Positions 22,820 to 32,000 are shown, counted from the first letter of the stretch. The stretch: DNA of 32,000 nt from Promethearchaeota archaeon (GCA_016933055.1 JAFGBS010000009.1:150001-182000); one strand, 5' to 3'. Numbers and translations: made by a program. The notes: generated from the letters alone by a model not told the origin.

Positions 22820-23941
22820 TTGCGAGTGTACATAAAAACACCATGCCGATTACATTTTAGCTTAATTGATATGAATGGTTCGCTAAATCGAGTCGATGGA
22901 GGAATAGGTCTTACCCTGAAACAACCTAATTTTACCTTAGAAGTCCTTGATCGTGAATCTCTTATTCATCGAGGAGTAGGGAAGTTTGCTTGGGAACTTT
23001 TACCGGAAAAGCAAATAGTCCTTGAAACAGATTTAGGTCAAGTCGTTTTTTCAATAGAATGTTCAGATTGCCCCAATCCCGATGAATTGTTAGATACCGT
23101 ATCAGATATCACAGAAAAATTTATCCACCAGCTCACTGATAAATTCTCGCTCGCTAAATCTGATAAATTCCCTTTGAAATTTACGATATGGGATTTTCTG
23201 TTTTCCCATATGGGTCTTGGTTCCAAAACTCAAATGGCACTTGCAATTGCATCCTCCATCATAAAGATTCTCGGATTAGATGTACACATAGATGTTGAAA
23301 CACTTACTCAAATGGTGGGGAGAGGAGGGACTTCGGGAATTGGATTTCGCTCTTTTGAAAATGGAGGTTTCATTTTGGATTGCGGTCATCGATTTGGGAA
23401 AAATCTGGAGAAAGAAAGTTTCTTACCTTCGTCAGCTTCTCATGCTAAACCTGCACGTACAATTTTACGCTATGATTTTCCAGAGGAATGGTACGTGCTT
23501 GTTGTAATCCTAAACGTTCCAGCGGGTGCATCGAATATGGAGGAAATTAATATCTTCCAAAATCACTGTCCTATCCCAATAGAAGAAGTCCAGCAAGTGA
23601 CTCATCATATTTTGATGCAACTACTTCCCGGAATTATCGAGAAGGATTTGGTCAATTTTGGCGAAGCGGTGAATTCCATCCGAAAAATTGGATTTAAAAA
23701 AATCGAAATCGATCTACAACACGATCACATAAAGGAATTAATTAAATTCTTAGAACAAAAATCCTCAAAATGTGTGGGGATGAGTTCATTCGGTCCCACG
23801 GTATTTTCCATATTTGAATCAAAGCCACTAGCATTGGAGATGCTGGATCATATCAAGAAAAAATTCTCATCGGTTGGATTTACTTCGTATATCACTACTG
23901 CTAATAATACAGGAGCCGATATTGAGGTAACTCCTCAGTAA
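22820..23941 (+). CDS. mptG: Beta-ribofuranosylaminobenzene 5'-phosphate (RFAP) synthase, GHMP-kinase fold
   Basis: TPCRLHFSLIDMNG...RVDGGIG, HMGLGSKTQ, GRGGTSGIG..SFENGGFILDCGH and GMSSFGPTV. Confidence 0.9.
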   Translation: MRVYIKTPCRLHFSLIDMNGSLNRVDGGIGLTLKQPNFTLEVLDRESLIHRGVGKFAWELLPEKQIVLETDLGQVVFSIECSDCPNPDELLDTVSDITEKFIHQLTDKFSLAKSDKFPLKFTIWDFLFSHMGLGSKTQMALAIASSIIKILGLDVHIDVETLTQMVGRGGTSGIGFRSFENGGFILDCGHRFGKNLEKESFLPSSASHAKPARTILRYDFPEEWYVLVVILNVPAGASNMEEINIFQNHCPIPIEEVQQVTHHILMQLLPGIIEKDLVNFGEAVNSIRKIGFKKIEIDLQHDHIKELIKFLEQKSSKCVGMSSFGPTVFSIFESKPLALEMLDHIKKKFSSVGFTSYITTANNTGADIEVTPQ

Positions 23942-23983
23942 ATGAATTAAAAGGAAAAAGAATAGAGAAAATTCGATTACTAA

Positions 23984-25447
23984 TTAAAATTGATCTAATT
24001 TTTTGGATTGGATCCAAATGTCCTCTAAAACGGGGGCAAACATTTTGATATGTTCATCCAATACTGAGCCCATCCCCGCTACTTGTAGTTCTCCATCTCC
24101 TTTGGAGACAACACAGACAATCATTTCCTCAAAATCTTTATTGAGAGCCCAAACCGTGCCGCGGGGGAAATATCGCAAGTCAACATTGGTCATTTCCTTT
24201 AATGTGTCCACTTTTCCTTTATCAGCAGAACTATTCAAATCAAAATCGGTAGAGATACGAACATTGATACGGGACTTTACTTTTGAGAGTGCTGTAAAAT
24301 CAATATCTTTGATCGTGGGACAAATTACATATAACCGCATCTTAACCATGGAAAATGCCTCGTTTATCTGCGCTTTCATAGCTTCTGGTGATCTTATGAA
24401 CCATACATCCTTAAAAGTCATCATAGAGGCTGCTTTAGAACGTTCCCAAAATTCCTGCATAGTTTTTTCTGCCAGATCCAATTGTCGGACAACTGACATC
24501 ATGGTATCTTCATCCAGTGTTTCCATTACTTCCTTTTGGAATTGCCCTTTTAATTCATTAATTCCTTTTTGAATAGAATTATTCACTTCAGTGACGCGTT
24601 TTTCTAAATCTCCTAATGTCTCTTCTAATCCTGCTTCGATATTGGTGAAAGAATCTCCTATTCCTGAACTTATCTCTCCAGCTGTATCCGTAATACTTCC
24701 TAATTGCTCAATAACTTGATCTAAGGTGTCTTGTGTAGTTTGGATTACCTTATCTCGGAAGTACCCTGCCATTTCTTCAAATTGGTCCTTAATAATACGT
24801 GAAACTATCTTTTCTGCAAAACTTGACAAGGCTCCCACTCGGAATTGCTTCTCGAATGCTTGCGAGATTTCAGATTTTATCGTTTCCAATCGAGATTGCA
24901 TTCGTCCGAATTCCATTTCAATATCTGGGGGAACTACTTCCTTAAGATTCAAAATAAATAATTTTAAATCATGGAATTTTTGAACCCCTTTCATTTGATT
25001 TTCAAATTTTGAGAGCTGGTCTTTCATTTTCACGGGGAGGGTTTCCTTCATTTCACGAATAAATTCCACATATTCTTGAAATTTGTCTAAGGATGCAATA
25101 GATTTCTCCATCCCGATGAACCTTCCCTCTAAAGCCGTAGGAGCTGCACTCTTCAATCCAGTAATAGATTCCTTAAATTGATGTATTTGTTTCATTAATG
25201 CAGCATATGGGGGTAATGCGGAATAATGGATAGTTTTTCCTGGTACTTCTCTTACCAATCCTTTTTCTACCAAATCTTTCGCGATTTCTTGCGCCCGTAC
25301 ATCATCTACTCCACCTAAAAGTCCCATTTCACCGGCACTAACTGGTCCTCTTCCAGTGATCCGAAAATAAACCTCTATTTCGTCTGGAGCTAATCCGATT
25401 AATTCGAGGACTTCTTGAGTAGATTTAAACTCTTGTTCACTTGACAT
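23984..25447 (-). CDS. TrmB-family winged-HTH regulator with long central coiled-coil/helical region and C-terminal TrmB effector (PLD-like) domain
   Basis: GLAPDEIEVYFRI...EIAKDLVEKGLVREVPGKTIHYSALPP (TrmB HTH), about 270 aa of amphipathic helices, then a C-terminal alpha/beta domain (RLYVICP, VRIST, WALNKDFEEMIV) lacking HxK. Confidence 0.75.
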   Translation of the reverse strand: MSSEQEFKSTQEVLELIGLAPDEIEVYFRITGRGPVSAGEMGLLGGVDDVRAQEIAKDLVEKGLVREVPGKTIHYSALPPYAALMKQIHQFKESITGLKSAAPTALEGRFIGMEKSIASLDKFQEYVEFIREMKETLPVKMKDQLSKFENQMKGVQKFHDLKLFILNLKEVVPPDIEMEFGRMQSRLETIKSEISQAFEKQFRVGALSSFAEKIVSRIIKDQFEEMAGYFRDKVIQTTQDTLDQVIEQLGSITDTAGEISSGIGDSFTNIEAGLEETLGDLEKRVTEVNNSIQKGINELKGQFQKEVMETLDEDTMMSVVRQLDLAEKTMQEFWERSKAASMMTFKDVWFIRSPEAMKAQINEAFSMVKMRLYVICPTIKDIDFTALSKVKSRINVRISTDFDLNSSADKGKVDTLKEMTNVDLRYFPRGTVWALNKDFEEMIVCVVSKGDGELQVAGMGSVLDEHIKMFAPVLEDIWIQSKKLDQF

Positions 25448-25455
25448 GTTTTATT

Positions 25456-26604
25456 TCACTTCCCTTTTTTTTCGTGAAAATCATAATATACTTTTTCTAG
25501 ATAATCCAAATGTTTGATCGCAGTCTCTTTTTTAATGATTCCCTCTTCTTGATCCTTACGGATATTCTCTAACATATATTCAGGGTAAAATGGTCGAACT
25601 GCAACATCCGTGAGTAAAAATACCCACTCGACATTTTTGTTATCTTTAATTATTTTTAAAATATTGTCTTTCTCCATTACCGATAGCAAATGAGCAACAT
25701 CTAAGGCACCTTCATCTGTTCCTTTGGGAATCTTATTCAACGGGTAAGGTCTATCTCGGAATAGTGCTAAATAATCAAATTTATCTGGATTAGTCAAATT
25801 GCGAGCAAGAACCAGATTATCTTCTTCTGTTGGCTTATAGTCTGCGAAAAATTTCTTCACTTCTGAAAGATATTTTTCGGCGAGATTTGGGTTTGGTAAG
25901 TTATTTTTAGCGTTATCGATGAGATCAAACGCTGGAGCTCGAAATATTGTAAAATCTGAGATGAGGAAAAGAAAAACTTCCGCTACTCCTTCAATCCAAT
26001 CTTGTTTTACTAAACCACTTTTTACAAATGGATCTAGTGTGATATCAAGATTGGTAATGATTTTCTTTAATGACTCTTCCAGCAATGCTTGGAGTTGTTT
26101 CTTCGAGTAGGCACGTTCCCTAAGTAATTCTAGGATTTTTCTCCCTTTTTGACTATAATAAATCTGAGCTAGTAATTGCTCCTTCGTCAAATATTTCAAT
26201 CTTTCCAATAAGAACAGTGCATTTTTCAGATACTGTTTAAGTTTCTTCACTACTTCATAATTTGCACTGATACTTGTACCGAGTTGGCGGAGGTATTTCA
26301 AGATCGCTTCATTTATATCTTTAATTACAGCCTCTCCGAACATATCTGGATCCTCACCCAATTCCAATATGAGATTAATCATAAAGGGGGTAGGGGAATC
26401 CATGCCTGTGAAGTAGGATGCAACGTTGGACTGAACTTTTTCTAGACGGACCAAGACATTTCCCGCTTCTGCAACACCAGTAATATGAGCATAAAATACT
26501 CGCATCATATCATCTAGATCCACTTTCAATTCTTCGGGATAATTCAACTGCACAATTAAACCATCAGTATCGGTCCATTTTGTAACTACAAATCCTTTAG
26601 GCAT
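25456..26604 (-). CDS. Longin-like domain plus two winged-helix domains
   Basis: N-terminal MPKGFVVTKWTDTDGLIVQLNYP...SYFTG...FMINLIL is the Asgard longin/uDENN-like pattern. Two internally similar WH-like segments end in LVKQ..FLFLISD and ILKI..VFLLTD. Confidence 0.65.
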   Translation of the reverse strand: MPKGFVVTKWTDTDGLIVQLNYPEELKVDLDDMMRVFYAHITGVAEAGNVLVRLEKVQSNVASYFTGMDSPTPFMINLILELGEDPDMFGEAVIKDINEAILKYLRQLGTSISANYEVVKKLKQYLKNALFLLERLKYLTKEQLLAQIYYSQKGRKILELLRERAYSKKQLQALLEESLKKIITNLDITLDPFVKSGLVKQDWIEGVAEVFLFLISDFTIFRAPAFDLIDNAKNNLPNPNLAEKYLSEVKKFFADYKPTEEDNLVLARNLTNPDKFDYLALFRDRPYPLNKIPKGTDEGALDVAHLLSVMEKDNILKIIKDNKNVEWVFLLTDVAVRPFYPEYMLENIRKDQEEGIIKKETAIKHLDYLEKVYYDFHEKKGK

Positions 26605-26605
26605 T

Positions 26606-28222
26606 TTATTTGCTCCCTTCTATTTTCTTTTCTGGTATAGTTTTTTCTTCTGGGGGTGACATATCTTCATAACCCGACATGTCTTTTTTTGGAGCAGCTT
26701 TCTCTGAAGGCTGCGATGGTGCTTTTCTACTAGACTTATCTAGTAGACGTTTTTCTTCTTCAAAAATATTTCTTCCAATTGTGTTGGAGTCTTTTGTTTG
26801 CAATGGCTTGGTAGCCCTTCCATGTCGGATTTTTCGTCGTAGTGACTTTACAGTTCTAACTTGTGCGGGGAATTTAAAAATACCTTCATACAATCCGATT
26901 CCTGTAGCTAAGGCAGCAAGCAATCCTGCAGAACTATAAATATAAGGTTGCAAGTTCGTTGGAGGTGGGTCTGGCAATATAACTATATATGTTAGTTTGA
27001 GCACTACGTTATCTATGTAAATTCCAATCGGAGAATCTAATTCAAAATTATCCCCAATATACATTTGAATAGATACGGTAATATTTTCATCCAAACTAAT
27101 TAGTGATGTAACATTGTATCCATCAGGATTAGCAACTTGGTAAATATCTGTGGCGGCACTGATTTTGACCGTTTCATAGAGTTTCTTATTACTGACAAAC
27201 AATCGAAATTCCGAGTTTGGAGAAGCATCTGTTGGCCATGGGGTATCAATTTTGTACGAAAATTCAAAGGACGCGTCTCGAATCAAAACATTCGTGCTAT
27301 TAAGTGAATTCCCGATTCCATCCCAAGAAGCTGTTGTTAATTGGTTCATTTTCTTTTGATACGTGAACGATAAACTCACATTTTTGATATATATGTCATC
27401 AAAAAAGTCTTGATCGCTATTTCTATTATCCTCACAAAATATTCTGATCCCCACGGTTATTGTAAAGTTAAAATCATCCGTATTTAACACTGAAGTAAGA
27501 AAGAATTTCAGATTTTCTTCGGTGACAGTTGTTATTAATGTATCCTCCATTTGGTCGAATGTCCCCGCACTATCTTTACCGAGATCAGAAGTTTGATTAT
27601 ATGCAATTTCATACACTTTTTGCTTTGGTAAATCTGAAATTAGTAAATAATACCTAATGTAATCGTAATCTGCCGCTTGATGGACAGCATCTCCAGGAAC
27701 TTCAATTCCTCCAAAATCAGGATTGTTTGCATGAACGGTTGCATTGATTACAGCACTTACGGATGCAGAAGTGATTGTATAATCACTCATATTATTCGGC
27801 ATGCTAACATTATAATCAAAATGAACAGAAGGTGATTGGTCTGAACGCTGACCATAAGTGTCTCCCCAGTAATGAGAAACATAAAATCCTTCTGAAGTCA
27901 CATCATAATCATCTGGCAAATCTGGATAGGCTATATTGTTTACTGCTGTCCATGTATCAGAATTCAAAGGTGCATTTAGCTCCCATTCCAATTCCTCTCC
28001 AAGTAAATTATAAAGTGCCTCTCCTGAACTCGAACTAGTAGTAATATCAGATTCATCTCCTGCTATAGAAGTTGACCATTGAGAACTGATAGGATCATCA
28101 AAACCACTTATCCAAACTACATCTTCATAAAGTATTTCCCGAGCAGAAACTAAAGGAATTGTGCTTAAAAGACTAATCACACATAAAATGCCTATGCTGG
28201 TAATTAATAGGGATCTTTTCAT
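26606..28222 (-). CDS. Secreted, C-terminally membrane-anchored beta-rich surface protein (paralog 2)
   Basis: Signal peptide MKRSLLITSIGILCVISLLSTIPLVSA; S/T/D/N-rich beta ectodomain; PDPPP linker; TM helix; KFPAQVR..LRRKIRHG motif; charged cytoplasmic tail. Confidence 0.85.
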   Translation of the reverse strand: MKRSLLITSIGILCVISLLSTIPLVSAREILYEDVVWISGFDDPISSQWSTSIAGDESDITTSSSSGEALYNLLGEELEWELNAPLNSDTWTAVNNIAYPDLPDDYDVTSEGFYVSHYWGDTYGQRSDQSPSVHFDYNVSMPNNMSDYTITSASVSAVINATVHANNPDFGGIEVPGDAVHQAADYDYIRYYLLISDLPKQKVYEIAYNQTSDLGKDSAGTFDQMEDTLITTVTEENLKFFLTSVLNTDDFNFTITVGIRIFCEDNRNSDQDFFDDIYIKNVSLSFTYQKKMNQLTTASWDGIGNSLNSTNVLIRDASFEFSYKIDTPWPTDASPNSEFRLFVSNKKLYETVKISAATDIYQVANPDGYNVTSLISLDENITVSIQMYIGDNFELDSPIGIYIDNVVLKLTYIVILPDPPPTNLQPYIYSSAGLLAALATGIGLYEGIFKFPAQVRTVKSLRRKIRHGRATKPLQTKDSNTIGRNIFEEEKRLLDKSSRKAPSQPSEKAAPKKDMSGYEDMSPPEEKTIPEKKIEGSK

Positions 28223-29985
28223 TGGTTTCCTTCCCCCTTTGAGGTAATATCAAGATTAGTATCGGTTTTTGACGTATCAATAGATTTAGGTGGTTTGGGT
28301 TCGTTAATTTTATCTGCTTCAACATAGGACTTTGAGGAAGCTTCTTTACTTGCAGCGGTACTTTTTGTAGAAGATGTTTTCAGTTTTTTCTGAAGTTGTG
28401 TTTTTTCTGAAGCGTGTATCTCATTACTAATTGAGCTAGCATCCTTTTTTGTTAAGGGTTTCGTGCCTCGCCCCGTCCGTATTCTTCTCTTTAAATTACG
28501 TATGTGACGAACTTGAGCTGGATATTTGAAATGGCCCTCATAAGCACCAAATCCTACCCCTAATAATACCACTCCTCCCATTAACCCGTAAAGATATGGC
28601 CAATTACTCTCAGGTGGAGGAGCTGGAGGTTCAATTAATACATAGGCTACCCACAATTGTACATTTGTTATAGAAACTGTAATATTATCTGCAAGCGCAA
28701 ATTCATCTGCCAGATATAATTCAATTGAAAGTGTAATATTCACTTCCTTTTGAAGTAATTTCGTTACATTAAACCCTTCAGCCTTTGATTCTTGAAATGA
28801 AAAAGTTCCAGAACTTAATTTAATGGTTTCGTTATGCATATTTCCATTAATTCGAATCCGTAACTCCGAATTTGGGGAGGACAGCTCCCAAGGTGTGTCG
28901 ATCTTGAAATCGTATTTAACAATTCCATTTGTGATTTGTGCATTATCCTCAACGATGGAATTTCCTACTTGGCTCCAAGAAGCAGATGCGTCACGATTGA
29001 TTATTTTTTCATAACTGAATGTTAAATTATAAGATTTAATTAGTAAATCATCCCATGAATCATCATCGTTTAAAAAATTATCTTCGCACCATATTTTCAT
29101 TCCCATGGTAAAGTTAAAATTTCGATTATCCGTGGAAAGAACATCAGAAAGAAAAAATATTAAACTCTCTTCTGGAACAGTGAACAAATAAGTATCTGTT
29201 AAGCTATCATATGTTGTTGTCAAATATTCAGCATCCGAGGTATATACATCTTGTCCGAGAGGATAAGTATATTGTCCTGTTTGATACTGGGCGATTTCAT
29301 ATGATTTTGTATTGGTAAGATCAGAAACTAATGAATAAAATCTTACATAATCGTAAGTCGAGAATTGAGGTGTTGTCGCCTGTGATGGTGGAACATCCGC
29401 CACGTTAGTATAATCCCCATAAGCTTCAACTCCACCATTTCCATTACCGTAACCGTTATTGGCTTTAACAGTAGCGTTCACAATTACAGAGACATTTGCT
29501 GATGTAATTCTATAATCCGACATGTCAACAGGCATAGATATATTTCTAGTCCAATGAACTGAGGTTAATTGACCTGCTTCGGCTTCCGTCCAGAAATGTG
29601 TAACATACATACCTTCAGATGTGATATCATAATCGTCAGGGAATGTAGTTAATTCTGGATTTTGTACTACCGTCCAATTATCAGTATGTGGTGGATCTTC
29701 TGCGATCGAGAATGTGCGATAATCTCCCACTACCTTGAAATCAGCTTGCCCCGAAGTCGGGCTTTCTGCTATCAAATCAGTCAAATCTCCATTAACCGAA
29801 CTTATCCATTCGGGATCAATCGGAGCAATAAAACCGGGATTAACCATCCATTCCTTATCGGTTCCATCTTGAGCATTTAGTAAAGAGATATGGGAAAAAA
29901 ACGCAATAACGATAAAGAAAACTATTAATCGATAATATTTCTTTTTTATTGTAAACCCCTCTGTAGGTTTTGTTATCTTAATCAC
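28219..29985 (-). CDS. Secreted, C-terminally membrane-anchored beta-rich surface protein (paralog 1)
   Basis: N-terminal basic region plus hydrophobic signal. Collinear similarity to 26606..28222 (PDDYD.TSEG.YV.H.W, SMP..MSDY.ITSA.VS..NATV.ANN, YDY.R.Y.L.SDL, SPNSE.R). PPAPPP linker, TM, KYPAQVR..LKRRIRTG. Confidence 0.85.
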   Translation of the reverse strand: MIKITKPTEGFTIKKKYYRLIVFFIVIAFFSHISLLNAQDGTDKEWMVNPGFIAPIDPEWISSVNGDLTDLIAESPTSGQADFKVVGDYRTFSIAEDPPHTDNWTVVQNPELTTFPDDYDITSEGMYVTHFWTEAEAGQLTSVHWTRNISMPVDMSDYRITSANVSVIVNATVKANNGYGNGNGGVEAYGDYTNVADVPPSQATTPQFSTYDYVRFYSLVSDLTNTKSYEIAQYQTGQYTYPLGQDVYTSDAEYLTTTYDSLTDTYLFTVPEESLIFFLSDVLSTDNRNFNFTMGMKIWCEDNFLNDDDSWDDLLIKSYNLTFSYEKIINRDASASWSQVGNSIVEDNAQITNGIVKYDFKIDTPWELSSPNSELRIRINGNMHNETIKLSSGTFSFQESKAEGFNVTKLLQKEVNITLSIELYLADEFALADNITVSITNVQLWVAYVLIEPPAPPPESNWPYLYGLMGGVVLLGVGFGAYEGHFKYPAQVRHIRNLKRRIRTGRGTKPLTKKDASSISNEIHASEKTQLQKKLKTSSTKSTAASKEASSKSYVEADKINEPKPPKSIDTSKTDTNLDITSKGEGNQ

Positions 29986-30145
29986 ATTATCTTTGTTTTA
30001 AATTAATTTAAATTTTCGTTAGAGAACTCATAACTCTTCAAAAGAGATCGGGAATTATTTGAAATAATCACTCTATATTAAGATATTATCAAAAATGATC
30101 ATAAAAGAAATAAGTCGACCTTTAAAATTAAGGTATGAATAACTT

Positions 30146-31483
30146 TTACTCTACAGTGTTATGTTCCTTGTTCCGTGGATTGTACAAAATTTTTGCCGTG
30201 TTCAATCGATCAGATTTATGTTCTCTAAATACCCCTCCGATCCTTACTGATAAATCTTCAAAACTATACTTGAATTTAATTAACTCCCACAATTTCAAAG
30301 CTACGAACCAGAATCCGACTACGATCATTAAATACGAAATGTTCATGATGACATTGCCCATTACCGCATCAAATTCTCCACTTAACTCCCCAAAGCGTGA
30401 GTGAAAGATGTTACTCCACAAAATATTCCATAAAGCTTCTAAACAATAAATCGTCAACGAAAGCATTCCGAAGCGACGTATAAAGATACTTCTTTTTACC
30501 GTTTTCTCACCAGATTCAAAATCAAATTTTCTGAAAAACCACGGGATCCACAATAACATCAGCCCGAGATTTATAAATGAGAGATCTGGGGGTATGTTCT
30601 TGTATCTAAATAAGTAAGTAATAATATCTGTAGAAATAGTAAATAGGTGATATCCTACTAGTAATAATCCAACAATGAGGAAAATCAATCCCAGTTTTCT
30701 GCAATAGCGCTTAACGGCTTTATAAGGACGATCTTCCGCTAAAAAAATACCGATCACAATTCCAATAAGTGCATATCCTGCATAAGGCAGTACACAGTGA
30801 AGGGATCCTGCTATAAAAGAGAGGAAAAATGCTGGTACATAATACAATCTACCCATTTCCAAATAAGATAAAAATAAGGGATTTAACCATTCCCATAGTG
30901 CCTTAGAAATGGTTAACCACACAATAGCAAATATTGTGAGATTACGTATATTTATGTTTTTTGATTCCTCAAACCGATCTTTCCGCCACATGAATAATAA
31001 AGTAAAACAGGAAATTAATCCTGAACTTGCAATCATAGATAACGCATCGGCTTTAAAGAAGATTTCAATCTCCGGCAGACTAAATGCTCTTTTCTGAATT
31101 GAACCAGTGAAAAGGGAGTACAATTGATGATCACCCGTTAGAGCAGGAGTTGCCATAACAAATAATCCCATGTAGACAAAATGAAAAAGCAAGATCAATA
31201 AATTATTTATGATAGATGGTCTCACACTTCTCCAGATAGAATTACCTGCATCTTTTCGGTGGTAAACGATATAAGAATTTGCAATACCAGTAATTAATGC
31301 GAATAATCCTGCCCAAGTGCCTAAATAAAGCATTGGGGCAAATATGACTAGGGGTGAACGTGGAAGATATTCTACTGCATTTCCTTCACCGAGAAAAATT
31401 CCGAACACGATACCATGTGCAAAAACGACCCCAAAAATAGCTAAGCCTCGAATAAAATCGATACTTAACAGTCGTTTAGACAT
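30146..31483 (-). CDS. Multi-pass membrane protein of the DUF1624/HGSNAT-like (transmembrane acyltransferase) clan
   Basis: N-terminal RLLSIDFIRGLAIFGVVFAH, about 10 hydrophobic helices and C-terminal G.LSLTIYCL motif. Confidence 0.65.
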   Translation of the reverse strand: MSKRLLSIDFIRGLAIFGVVFAHGIVFGIFLGEGNAVEYLPRSPLVIFAPMLYLGTWAGLFALITGIANSYIVYHRKDAGNSIWRSVRPSIINNLLILLFHFVYMGLFVMATPALTGDHQLYSLFTGSIQKRAFSLPEIEIFFKADALSMIASSGLISCFTLLFMWRKDRFEESKNINIRNLTIFAIVWLTISKALWEWLNPLFLSYLEMGRLYYVPAFFLSFIAGSLHCVLPYAGYALIGIVIGIFLAEDRPYKAVKRYCRKLGLIFLIVGLLLVGYHLFTISTDIITYLFRYKNIPPDLSFINLGLMLLWIPWFFRKFDFESGEKTVKRSIFIRRFGMLSLTIYCLEALWNILWSNIFHSRFGELSGEFDAVMGNVIMNISYLMIVVGFWFVALKLWELIKFKYSFEDLSVRIGGVFREHKSDRLNTAKILYNPRNKEHNTVE

Positions 31484-31562: not shown

Positions 31563-32000
31563 TTAAAGCGTTTTTGTGGATTTCACGTTAAGCTCGTCTA
31601 TATTTAGTCTCATTTTAGTTAACATATTCACTTGATCTGCTCGTGAGGGGATATTTAGTTTCTTTATTCTTGCACCTCTTCGGATTTTTCTTCTTATGCT
31701 ACGTATTTTTCTCACATGGACAGGAAATTTAAGAATTCCTTGATACAAGCTAAATACAATAAAAAGTACTGCTATTCCTCCAGCAAGGCCTGCTGTCAAG
31801 GGTAAATAATTGGGTGGTGGTTCTGGAATCGGATCAGGGGTGAATATCATATAAGAGATCTTAAAATAGATGTTATCGATGAATATTGTGTAATTAAGCG
31901 TATTCTCAAATTCATCCGCAATATATAATTGGAATGAAACTGCCACGCTCAAGTTTGGAGTCAATAAATCCTTTAAAGCTCTTCCACTAAATTCAATTGT
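31563..32000 (-). CDS. C-terminal part of a third membrane-anchored surface protein of the same family (runs off window end)
   Basis: The frame is open to position 32000. VSFQLYIADEFE...IFIDNIYFKISY, PDPIPEPPP, TM and KFPVHVRKIRSIRRKIRRG match the two paralogs. Confidence 0.85.
   Translation of the reverse strand, partial: TIEFSGRALKDLLTPNLSVAVSFQLYIADEFENTLNYTIFIDNIYFKISYMIFTPDPIPEPPPNYLPLTAGLAGGIAVLFIVFSLYQGILKFPVHVRKIRSIRRKIRRGARIKKLNIPSRADQVNMLTKMRLNIDELNVKSTKTL

Follow-up and report, generated by a model that had tools for sequence, protein, structure and literature searches.

Do four closely packed genes of a Promethearchaeota archaeon encode a complex that passes the state of the cell surface to a cytoplasmic regulator, and is transcription its output? 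The question is raised by a stretch of DNA of 32,000 nucleotides (nt) (the window; JAFGBS010000009.1:150001-182000 of GCA_016933055.1, C17:150001-182000 in our numbering), taken from a metagenome-assembled genome (MAG) of 3.76 Mb that is 91% complete. On the minus strand of the window lie the genes of two type-I surface proteins, surfA and surfB, followed by those of P0003 (third-gene product, 382 amino acids (aa), with a longin domain and two winged-helix (WH) domains; longin-2WH below) and P0004 (fourth-gene product, 487 aa, TrmB-like). An initial annotation had read them as an undescribed signalling operon leading from the surface to transcription. The results below support the view that the four genes are one conserved functional unit and not a chance adjacency. 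It is quite probable that their products form a membrane-anchored complex of receptor tail, adaptor and effector as such. The favoured reading as a whole, in which this complex passes the surface state to P0004, is evenly balanced, and transcription as the output of the complex can be proposed only tentatively.

The surface-protein tail and its adaptor

surfA and surfB are paralogous and align over 561 aa at 40% identity (E 2e-113). Each has a signal peptide, an acidic ectodomain with 9-10 N-x-S/T sequons, a single C-terminal transmembrane helix and a common tail motif, in agreement with their earlier description as single-pass proteins with a conserved cytoplasmic motif. The third paralogue reported upstream on the same strand is also present, from 31563 to beyond the window; it is 34-38% identical to surfA and surfB and has the same stalk, transmembrane helix and tail motif (tail at 31566-31745). 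The basic motif Y-E-G-x-F-K-[FY]-P-A-Q-V-R is shared by surfA and surfB, and the tail consensus reads Y-E/Q-G-x-F/L-K-F/Y-P-x-x-V-R-x-I/V-K/R-x-L-K/R-K/R-K, followed by a second short hydrophobic motif. In surfB, the first motif is an amphipathic basic helix, P-x-x-V-R-x-V-K-x-L-R-R-K-I, and the second a hydrophobic patch, I-G-R-N-I-F. Neither protein, the ectodomain included, matches a Pfam or NCBIfam family, and an atlas search with the ectodomain returned its own clusters plus weak viral and MAM leads below 0.9. Orthologous Lokiarchaeial loci hold one to three homologous surface genes, whose products vary from 552 to 1520 aa with a constant tail. The 1520-aa gene, in the cassette of GCA_008080755.1 (L009:1146-5708), resembles two tail-bearing surface proteins joined in frame, with an internal transmembrane helix and tail (aa ~638-741), then a second full ectodomain and a second transmembrane helix and tail; it may be either a genuine two-pass fusion or the result of a lost stop codon.

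The third-gene product, annotated earlier as a longin-like/WH protein, is indeed modelled as a longin domain, two WH domains and a C-terminal helix. The AlphaFold2 (AF2) model, built from a 14-sequence alignment, has a predicted local distance difference test score (pLDDT) of 87 and a predicted template-modelling score (pTM) of 0.81, and places the longin domain at residues 1-138, the WH domains at 141-223 and 260-339, and a long helix behind them. Over its full length, P0003 comes closest in Foldseek to the NPRL2/NPRL3 chains of GATOR1 (E 2.6e-4) and to FNIP2/FLCN. The alignment to NPRL2/NPRL3 covers 420 columns with a global TM-score of 0.25, and the WH domains match generic ArsR/HxlR-type WH folds just as well as they match NPRL2/NPRL3. 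At the sequence level, P0003 has no Pfam match (NPR2/NPR3 included) or NCBIfam match at E <= 1, and its family profile finds no match among PDB sequences at E < 0.3. The family comprises 536 members in a profile search of 1.8 billion representatives, with six paralogues in this genome. Two further proteins of 625-720 aa, P0325 and P0330, carry the double-WH part without a longin domain, behind N-terminal HHH_5/Cdd1 helix-hairpin-helix repeats.

The pairing of tail and adaptor is recorded in natural gene fusions. Nine distinct representatives, with pairwise identities below 50%, carry in one chain a huge ectodomain, a transmembrane helix, a tail of ~100 aa with the motif and then a complete longin-2WH protein; one of these fusions was checked and is an intact open reading frame (ORF) of 2090 codons on an 80.7-kb contig. 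Similarly, four other P0003 paralogues of this genome are located directly downstream of membrane proteins with a related basic tail, three of them behind type-I proteins of 1300-1600 aa and one behind a 134-aa membrane protein.

A multimer prediction of the tail with the longin protein, which the initial annotation had suggested as a check, was carried out with P0003 and residues 445-506 of surfB in three runs and with three controls. The interface score (ipSAE) was 0.81 (0.80-0.82 between runs), with at least 90% of the contacts common and a partner pLDDT of at least 77, and the best of the three controls scored 0.00. In the calibration, 58 of 80 solved complexes and 2 of 110 mismatched pairs reach that mark, figures that are approximate since custom alignments were used. 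Because no sequence relative has a solved structure, the high score of this complex does not stem from a template already known to the model.

In the predicted complex, the interface on P0003 is formed by residues 217-230, 250-258, 335-353 and 359-377, all off the longin domain, and the tail motifs are placed on the last strands of both WH domains and along the C-terminal helix. The interface holds 7 of the top-30 conserved family positions (D217, P224, F253, P341, Y343, L366 and L369) compared to 2.7 expected (p ~0.013), and the predicted hydrophobic face of the tail consists of V455, V458, L461, I465, I482 and F487. In addition, the charges are complementary, with basic tails (+9/+11) facing the acidic P0003 (net charge -6) and P0004 (-18 in total). 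According to the model, the tail would be gripped by the module of two WH domains and C-terminal helix rather than by the longin domain. The earlier link between the tails and the longin protein is supported by the nine fusions and by the score against its controls, except that the docking site falls on the double-WH/helix module and not on the longin domain itself; the predicted binding rests on model confidence plus comparative genomics.

The adaptor and the TrmB-like protein

The closest proteins come from Promethearchaeota/Lokiarchaeia MAGs, where the homologues at 50-65% identity run into the hundreds for both P0003 and P0004. A survey of 201 Asgard genomes found orthologues of P0004 (49-59% identity) in 40 of the 41 sampled sister-family genomes, and more distant homologues in several other Asgard families. 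Conservation of the four-gene order had been named at the outset as a check on the operon, and the order is kept: a P0003 orthologue is located directly upstream of P0004 on the same strand at all 25 loci with upstream DNA, and a tail-motif gene stands directly upstream of the P0003 orthologue at no fewer than 11 loci by regular expression, with more found by tblastn. TrmB-like paralogues (28-34% identity, 730-785 aa) are likewise preceded by longin-2WH paralogues, so that the pair has been co-duplicated; in one paralogous longin/TrmB module, type-I membrane genes are placed divergently. In Odinarchaeia, 461-aa fusion proteins unite a longin domain with a TrmB winged helix-turn-helix (wHTH), helical region and C-terminal domain (pairwise E 2e-9 to P0003; 2e-24 and 1e-40 to P0004). 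Strict adjacency, co-duplication and this fusion together support the functional link from longin to TrmB that had been proposed.

One might instead suppose that the compactness of the genome, or at most shared regulation, has brought together genes that do not work jointly. That is hardly credible in view of the 25 adjacencies, the co-duplicated pair and the two kinds of gene fusion. Moreover, tail and adaptor are found side by side at four more loci of the genome, and the predicted complex scores clearly higher than its controls.

The Odinarchaeial fusion lacks the double-WH module, and no surface-protein gene lies beside it, its neighbours being housekeeping and aminoacyl-tRNA synthetase genes. 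Together with the docking result, this fusion suggests a division of labour, in which reading of the tail falls to the double-WH/helix module and the longin domain is the part that cooperates with the TrmB-like protein. The mechanism favoured here may be set out in four steps. The input would come from one to three fast-evolving, glycoprotein-like type-I surface proteins, which, as the sequences show, have a common basic juxtamembrane tail. In the second step, suggested by the fusions and the complex prediction, the two WH domains and helix of P0003 would clamp this tail beneath the membrane and leave the longin domain free. In the third, to which synteny, co-duplication and the Odinarchaeial fusion point, the longin domain would work with, and probably bind, P0004 as the effector arm. 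Finally, in what is the weakest of the four steps, the adaptor would relay to P0004 the state of the surface proteins or their clustering, most likely through control over the location and activity of P0004 as a dimeric wHTH DNA-binding protein. The resulting logic would be that of a one-component regulator split across three polypeptides, like a transcription factor held at the membrane. In support of a signalling output, the Odinarchaeial fusion has the layout of one-component regulators, an input domain with a wHTH; the fusions of Asgard NPRL2-like longins to two-component domains (Liu et al., cited below) and of adaptor-family members to TIR_2 or SIR2_2 and TPR domains count in the same direction.

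P0004 had been described as a DNA-binding regulator with a ligand-type domain. The TrmB-type wHTH, on which DNA binding would depend, matches PF01978 above the Pfam cut-off (29 bits against 25.6, E 1e-6), and the alignment of the P0004 profile with TrmB (3QPH) and TrmBL2 (E 1.5e-4 to 7e-4) extends into the first part of the dimerisation helix. The ligand-type C-terminal domain, on the other hand, is a lead only: the language-model neighbours of residues 340-487 include clusters of Regulator_TrmB, FilR1_middle and PLDc_2 at 0.84-0.87, which hints at a TrmB_C/FilR1/PLD-like domain, and PF11495 (Regulator_TrmB) has no match in P0004 or anywhere in this genome. This domain is 35-39% identical even to the Odinarchaeial fusion. 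The helical region shows only weak matches of apolipoprotein, SF-assemblin or coiled-coil type, and the layout of five helices and an alpha/beta domain is taken from a low-confidence AF2 model. In the alignment of orthologues, many invariant residues are spread throughout the protein.

Most P0004 orthologues are longer (630-700 aa) owing to a Pro-rich linker and a conserved ~90-aa helical domain with F-W-x-x-K-L at its end, e.g., P0185 residues 520-646; P0004 of this genome and a minority of orthologues are without this extension, which has no Pfam family and no separate gene in the genome at a convincing E-value. A 937-aa protein encoded elsewhere (C22:66384-69197; L063:6385-9198) matches the helical and C-terminal part of P0004 only (20% identity, E 5e-7). 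Judged by its sequence, this protein, which has no longin neighbour, may be a distant and differently wired TrmB-like relative.

Several observations weigh against the favoured mechanism, above all against its last step. P0004 alone folds poorly (AF2 pLDDT 55, pTM 0.29). Its wHTH, with a net charge of -4, is the second most acidic of the 13 TrmB-type wHTH matches in the genome, and compared to the best TrmB matches of the genome it has lost all but the Arg of the canonical S-R-(I/V)-Y-D recognition motif. In degree of conservation, the 260-aa helical region equals the globular domains; given these helices and the extra Pro-rich linker and domain of the orthologues, a scaffold fits at least as well as a transcription factor. 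As for the genes, the surface protein and longin-2WH occur without a TrmB-like gene at 3-4 other loci here and in the fused forms, and TrmB-like homologues stand alone in another Asgard family, which implies that P0004 is an optional arm and not part of the core. In addition, the tail motif is retained even where tail and adaptor are covalently fused, so that it may have a further role, e.g., lying on the membrane. Of the surface-to-transcription relay that had been claimed, the links from tail to adaptor and from adaptor to TrmB-like protein are supported, but its transcription step is called into question by the acidic wHTH, the largely lost recognition motif and the TrmB-less paralogous cassettes.

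Several of these features also suit a sub-membrane scaffold or sorting adaptor with no part in transcription, in which P0003 binds the tails and the wHTH of an acidic, helix-rich P0004 dimer serves as a protein-interaction module. Such a layer would anchor, cluster or sort the glycoproteins of the surface, and it might connect them with the cytoskeleton or with protrusions of the membrane. WH domains are known as protein-interaction modules in GATOR1, ESCRT-II and cullins. Besides the acidic wHTH with its degenerate motif, the acidity of every WH domain of P0003, one pair of which is predicted to bind a peptide and not DNA, fits such a role, as do the long helical region of P0004 with its many invariant residues and coiled-coil-like matches and the additional linker and domain in most orthologues. 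That the P0004 gene is single-copy and near-universal in the sister family also suits a structural part, and the ectodomains vary in size and number above constant tails. However, all characterised TrmB-family proteins bind DNA, to our knowledge, and R51 of the recognition helix and K71 of the wing are conserved in the P0004 family. The Odinarchaeial fusion amid its synthetase genes indicates that the role of the pair can dispense with a surface protein, and the TIR and SIR2 fusions described below point to signalling. A scaffold without transcription is regarded as rather unlikely.

The kinship of the longin domain raises another alternative, a platform that recruits GTPases. FLCN-FNIP, NPRL2-NPRL3 and C9orf72-SMCR8 act on GTPases at lysosomal membranes. 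By analogy, the tail-held longin domain of P0003 would be a GTPase-activating protein (GAP), a guanine nucleotide exchange factor (GEF) or a docking site for an Arf/Rag-like GTPase, and P0004 an accessory dimeriser, an arrangement that can coexist with either the transcription or the scaffold reading. A G-P motif before longin strand 2 has been associated with the GAP-type longins FLCN, NPRL2, SMCR8 and C9orf72 (PMC12290439). This motif is carried by the paralogues P0128 and P0130, and in P0130 it takes the C9orf72-like form W-D-x3-G-P, matching W33-D34/G38-P39 of C9orf72 in position and spacing. Some gene neighbourhoods agree: on the flanks of the fused form P0257 there are three genes of Arf/Ras-like GTPases, all less than 4 kb away, one orthologous cassette lies near Arf/RagA and Roadblock genes, and ~2.6 kb upstream of P0130, beyond two intervening genes, a 571-aa Arf/Roc-like GTPase is encoded in the same direction. 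P0003 and its orthologues, however, have W-T-x3-G-L, with G-L at the site of the G-P motif (G15 conserved, Pro absent), and no Arg in the longin domain stands out as conserved family-wide in the conservation analysis. Longin folds of non-GAP families score only 1-3 Z units lower for P0003. The nearest of the 47 Arf-like matches in the genome is 37 kb from the cassette, and Arf-like genes occur within 10 kb at 3 of the 7 family loci, which is not significant against the ~25% expected by chance. For this cassette, the platform is improbable. At the P0130 locus itself (C2:262150-267143; L060), the GTPase gene, whose product is extended at both the N and the C terminus, is followed by a 330-aa orphan, a 367-aa HEAT/coiled-coil gene and then P0130; this gene order makes the locus a candidate operon of longin and GTPase, different from the surface-protein cassettes.

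Among the metagenomic relatives of P0003, three longin-2WH proteins (P0298, P0318 and P0306) continue into a C-terminal SIR2_2 domain with TPR (E 3e-12 and 1.5e-4) or into TIR_2 (E 4.5e-13). Both SIR2 and TIR belong to the NADase-type effectors that typify immune and signalling proteins of prokaryotes. In the light of these relatives, longin-2WH resembles an adaptor for signalling whose effectors can be exchanged. The favoured receptor-tail mechanism may then be one case of a longin regulator on variable glycoprotein tails that passes their state to interchangeable effectors (TrmB here; TIR, SIR2 or Arf-like GTPases in relatives), a generalisation that is doubtful at present.

Gene junctions and neighbourhood

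The coordinates of the genes and their parts are collected in the table. The four minus-strand genes and their junctions were re-read base by base and are as originally claimed. The stop codon TGA of surfA overlaps the ATG of surfB by 4 nt (junction -4 nt) as ATGA at 28219-28222, the TAA of surfB is separated from the ATG of P0003 by 1 nt (base 26605), and P0003 is followed after 8 nt (25448-25455) by the ATG of P0004. A purine-rich, Shine-Dalgarno-like stretch is found 5' of every internal start (GGGGGAAGG, GAAGGGAG and GGGAAGTGA). The intergenic segment upstream of surfA, with its TATA-like TTTAAATTAATTTAAAA stretch, is the likely archaeal promoter of the four-gene unit, as far as the sequence can tell. 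A scan for sigma-70 promoters and intrinsic terminators gave sites not above those of shuffled sequence, such models being inapplicable to archaea. Two metatranscriptome runs yielded one 151-nt contig on the locus, inside surfB, and none spanning any junction.

Table. Features of the cassette and its surroundings in window coordinates
Feature	Position	Strand	Remarks
surfA, 588-aa type-I surface protein	28219-29985	-	Signal/anchor segment, acidic ectodomain, 10 N-x-S/T sequons, Pro-rich stalk, transmembrane helix, basic tail
surfA tail motif region	28357-28542	-	From the tail-motif comparison
surfB, 538-aa surfA paralogue	26606-28222	-	Signal peptide ending VSA|RE, 9 sequons, Pro-rich stalk, transmembrane helix, tail net charge +9
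surfB juxtamembrane tail, aa 445-506	26705-26890	-	Two conserved motifs; predicted adaptor-docking segment
P0003 gene	25456-26604	-	
P0003 longin domain, aa 1-138	26191-26604	-	FLCN/FNIP/NPRL2/C9orf72 type; degenerate W-T-x3-G-L
P0003 double WH and C-terminal helix module, aa 141-382	25459-26184	-	Predicted clamp for surface-protein tail
P0004 gene	23984-25447	-	
P0004 TrmB-type wHTH, aa 8-80	25208-25426	-	PF01978; net charge -4; recognition helix V-D-D-V-R-A-Q-E-I-A-K-D-L
P0004 helical region, aa 81-342	24422-25207	-	Five long helices; strongly conserved; net charge -11
P0004 C-terminal alpha/beta domain, aa 343-487	23987-24421	-	Best-conserved part of the family
Intergenic segment upstream of surfA	29986-30145	-	160 nt, AT-rich; TATA-like stretch ~25-40 nt before the GTG start
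Multi-pass membrane protein, acyltransferase-3-like	30146-31483	-	Weak Acyl_transf_3 match, E 0.21, whole profile spanned
Third type-I surface paralogue, C-terminal part	31563-32000, past window end	-	Full gene 522 aa, C17:181563-183131

Pfam and NCBIfam find no kinase or two-component domain in the four genes, in line with the earlier reading. In a comparison with the PADLOC defence-system models, P0001-P0003 and P0005 are without a match; those of P0004 are weak and of coiled-coil type (E 1e-4 to 6e-4), and membership of a defence system does not follow from them. The membrane acyltransferase-like gene noted upstream is present, with its weak Acyl_transf_3 match, but it does not belong to the conserved cassette: it is missing from orthologous cassettes, and its family is expanded in this genome (>25 paralogues by tblastn on 11 contigs, several in tandem on C11, C15 and C31), which indicates a lineage-specific insertion outside the core. 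In a 2017 hot-spring metagenome, 57% of the words sampled from window positions 23900-30150 are present at >=99% identity, so that a near-identical strain exists outside the sediment sample that probably gave the MAG.

Comparison with known systems

Like P0003, the GATOR1 subunits NPRL2/NPRL3 (yeast Npr2/Npr3 of SEACIT) have an N-terminal longin domain. The differences are considerable: the Pfam NPR2/NPR3 and PDB sequence matches are lacking, the TM-score is low at the value given above, the G-P motif is not kept, and the locus has neither a DEPDC5-like partner nor a Rag GTPase gene nearby. In addition, the WH module of P0003 is predicted to hold the tail of a type-I protein, and no such role is known for NPRL2/3. 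Compared to FLCN-FNIP (Lst7-Lst4) and C9orf72-SMCR8, P0003 has two WH domains and no DENN domain behind its longin domain, its motif is degenerate, and no GTPase partner has been identified.

With TrmB and TrmBL2 (PDB 3QPH, 5BPD and 5BOX), P0004 shares a homologous wHTH and start of the dimerisation helix, with an alpha/beta C-terminal domain in the same order. It differs from them in ~260 conserved helical residues inserted between these parts, in the absence of a detectable PF11495 and in the acidity of its wHTH. Moreover, the TrmB-like protein of the cassette is paired with a longin protein, to which it is fused in Odinarchaeia, and no sugar-transport genes are nearby.

Membrane sequestration of transcription factors is known from Escherichia coli Mlc, which is held by PtsG, and from pairs of anti-sigma and extracytoplasmic function (ECF) sigma factors. 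The logic of the fourth step would resemble these by analogy, a membrane protein holding a co-encoded DNA-binding protein. The parts, however, are entirely different, an adaptor of eukaryote-like fold is interposed, and DNA binding and release are here only proposed. The small and medium subunits of clathrin adaptors (AP sigma and the N-terminal domain of mu) read sorting motifs in cargo tails; in P0003, by contrast, the tail is predicted on the WH/helix module and not on or beside the longin fold, and the locus encodes no large adaptin or coat proteins.

In Asgard archaea, longins of the FLCN/SMCR8 type have been described (PMC12290439), in an account from which links to surface tails and to a TrmB-like protein are absent. 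NPRL2-like longin families have been noted generally, some of them fused to two-component signalling domains (Liu et al., bioRxiv 10.1101/2020.10.19.343400). Literature searches found no published description of an Asgard TrmB-longin cassette or its gene context, nor one in the literature on Lokiarchaeal surface proteins, and the claim that the system is undescribed holds to that extent. Asgard NPRL2-like longins in general were thus already known; what appears to be new, no description having been found, is the cassette that links surface tails, a longin-2WH protein and a TrmB-like protein.

Longin, Roadblock and small-GTPase proteins of eukaryote-like type abound in Asgard genomes, and for nearly all of them partner and role are obscure. 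For a widespread NPRL2/folliculin-like family, the cassette provides testable partners, namely a tail motif, a predicted groove and a dedicated effector derived from TrmB, and the tail-adaptor and adaptor-TrmB links are each backed by natural gene fusions. The cassette also suggests that longin-2WH is a general adaptor that evolution has wired to TrmB, TIR and SIR2-TPR effectors, and the proteins of the cassette are candidate anchors for the unexplained surface structures of Lokiarchaeia. If the proposed mechanism is true, an archaeon would for the first time offer a case in which a longin protein of eukaryote type reads the cytoplasmic tail of a type-I membrane protein, and it would show that surface and cytoplasm can be coupled without kinases or two-component systems in the closest relatives of eukaryotes. 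On the more doubtful general reading with interchangeable effectors, the cassette would also represent a prokaryotic forerunner of the recruitment of longin-GTPase regulators to membranes by way of receptor tails, as in the nutrient and trafficking signalling of eukaryotes.

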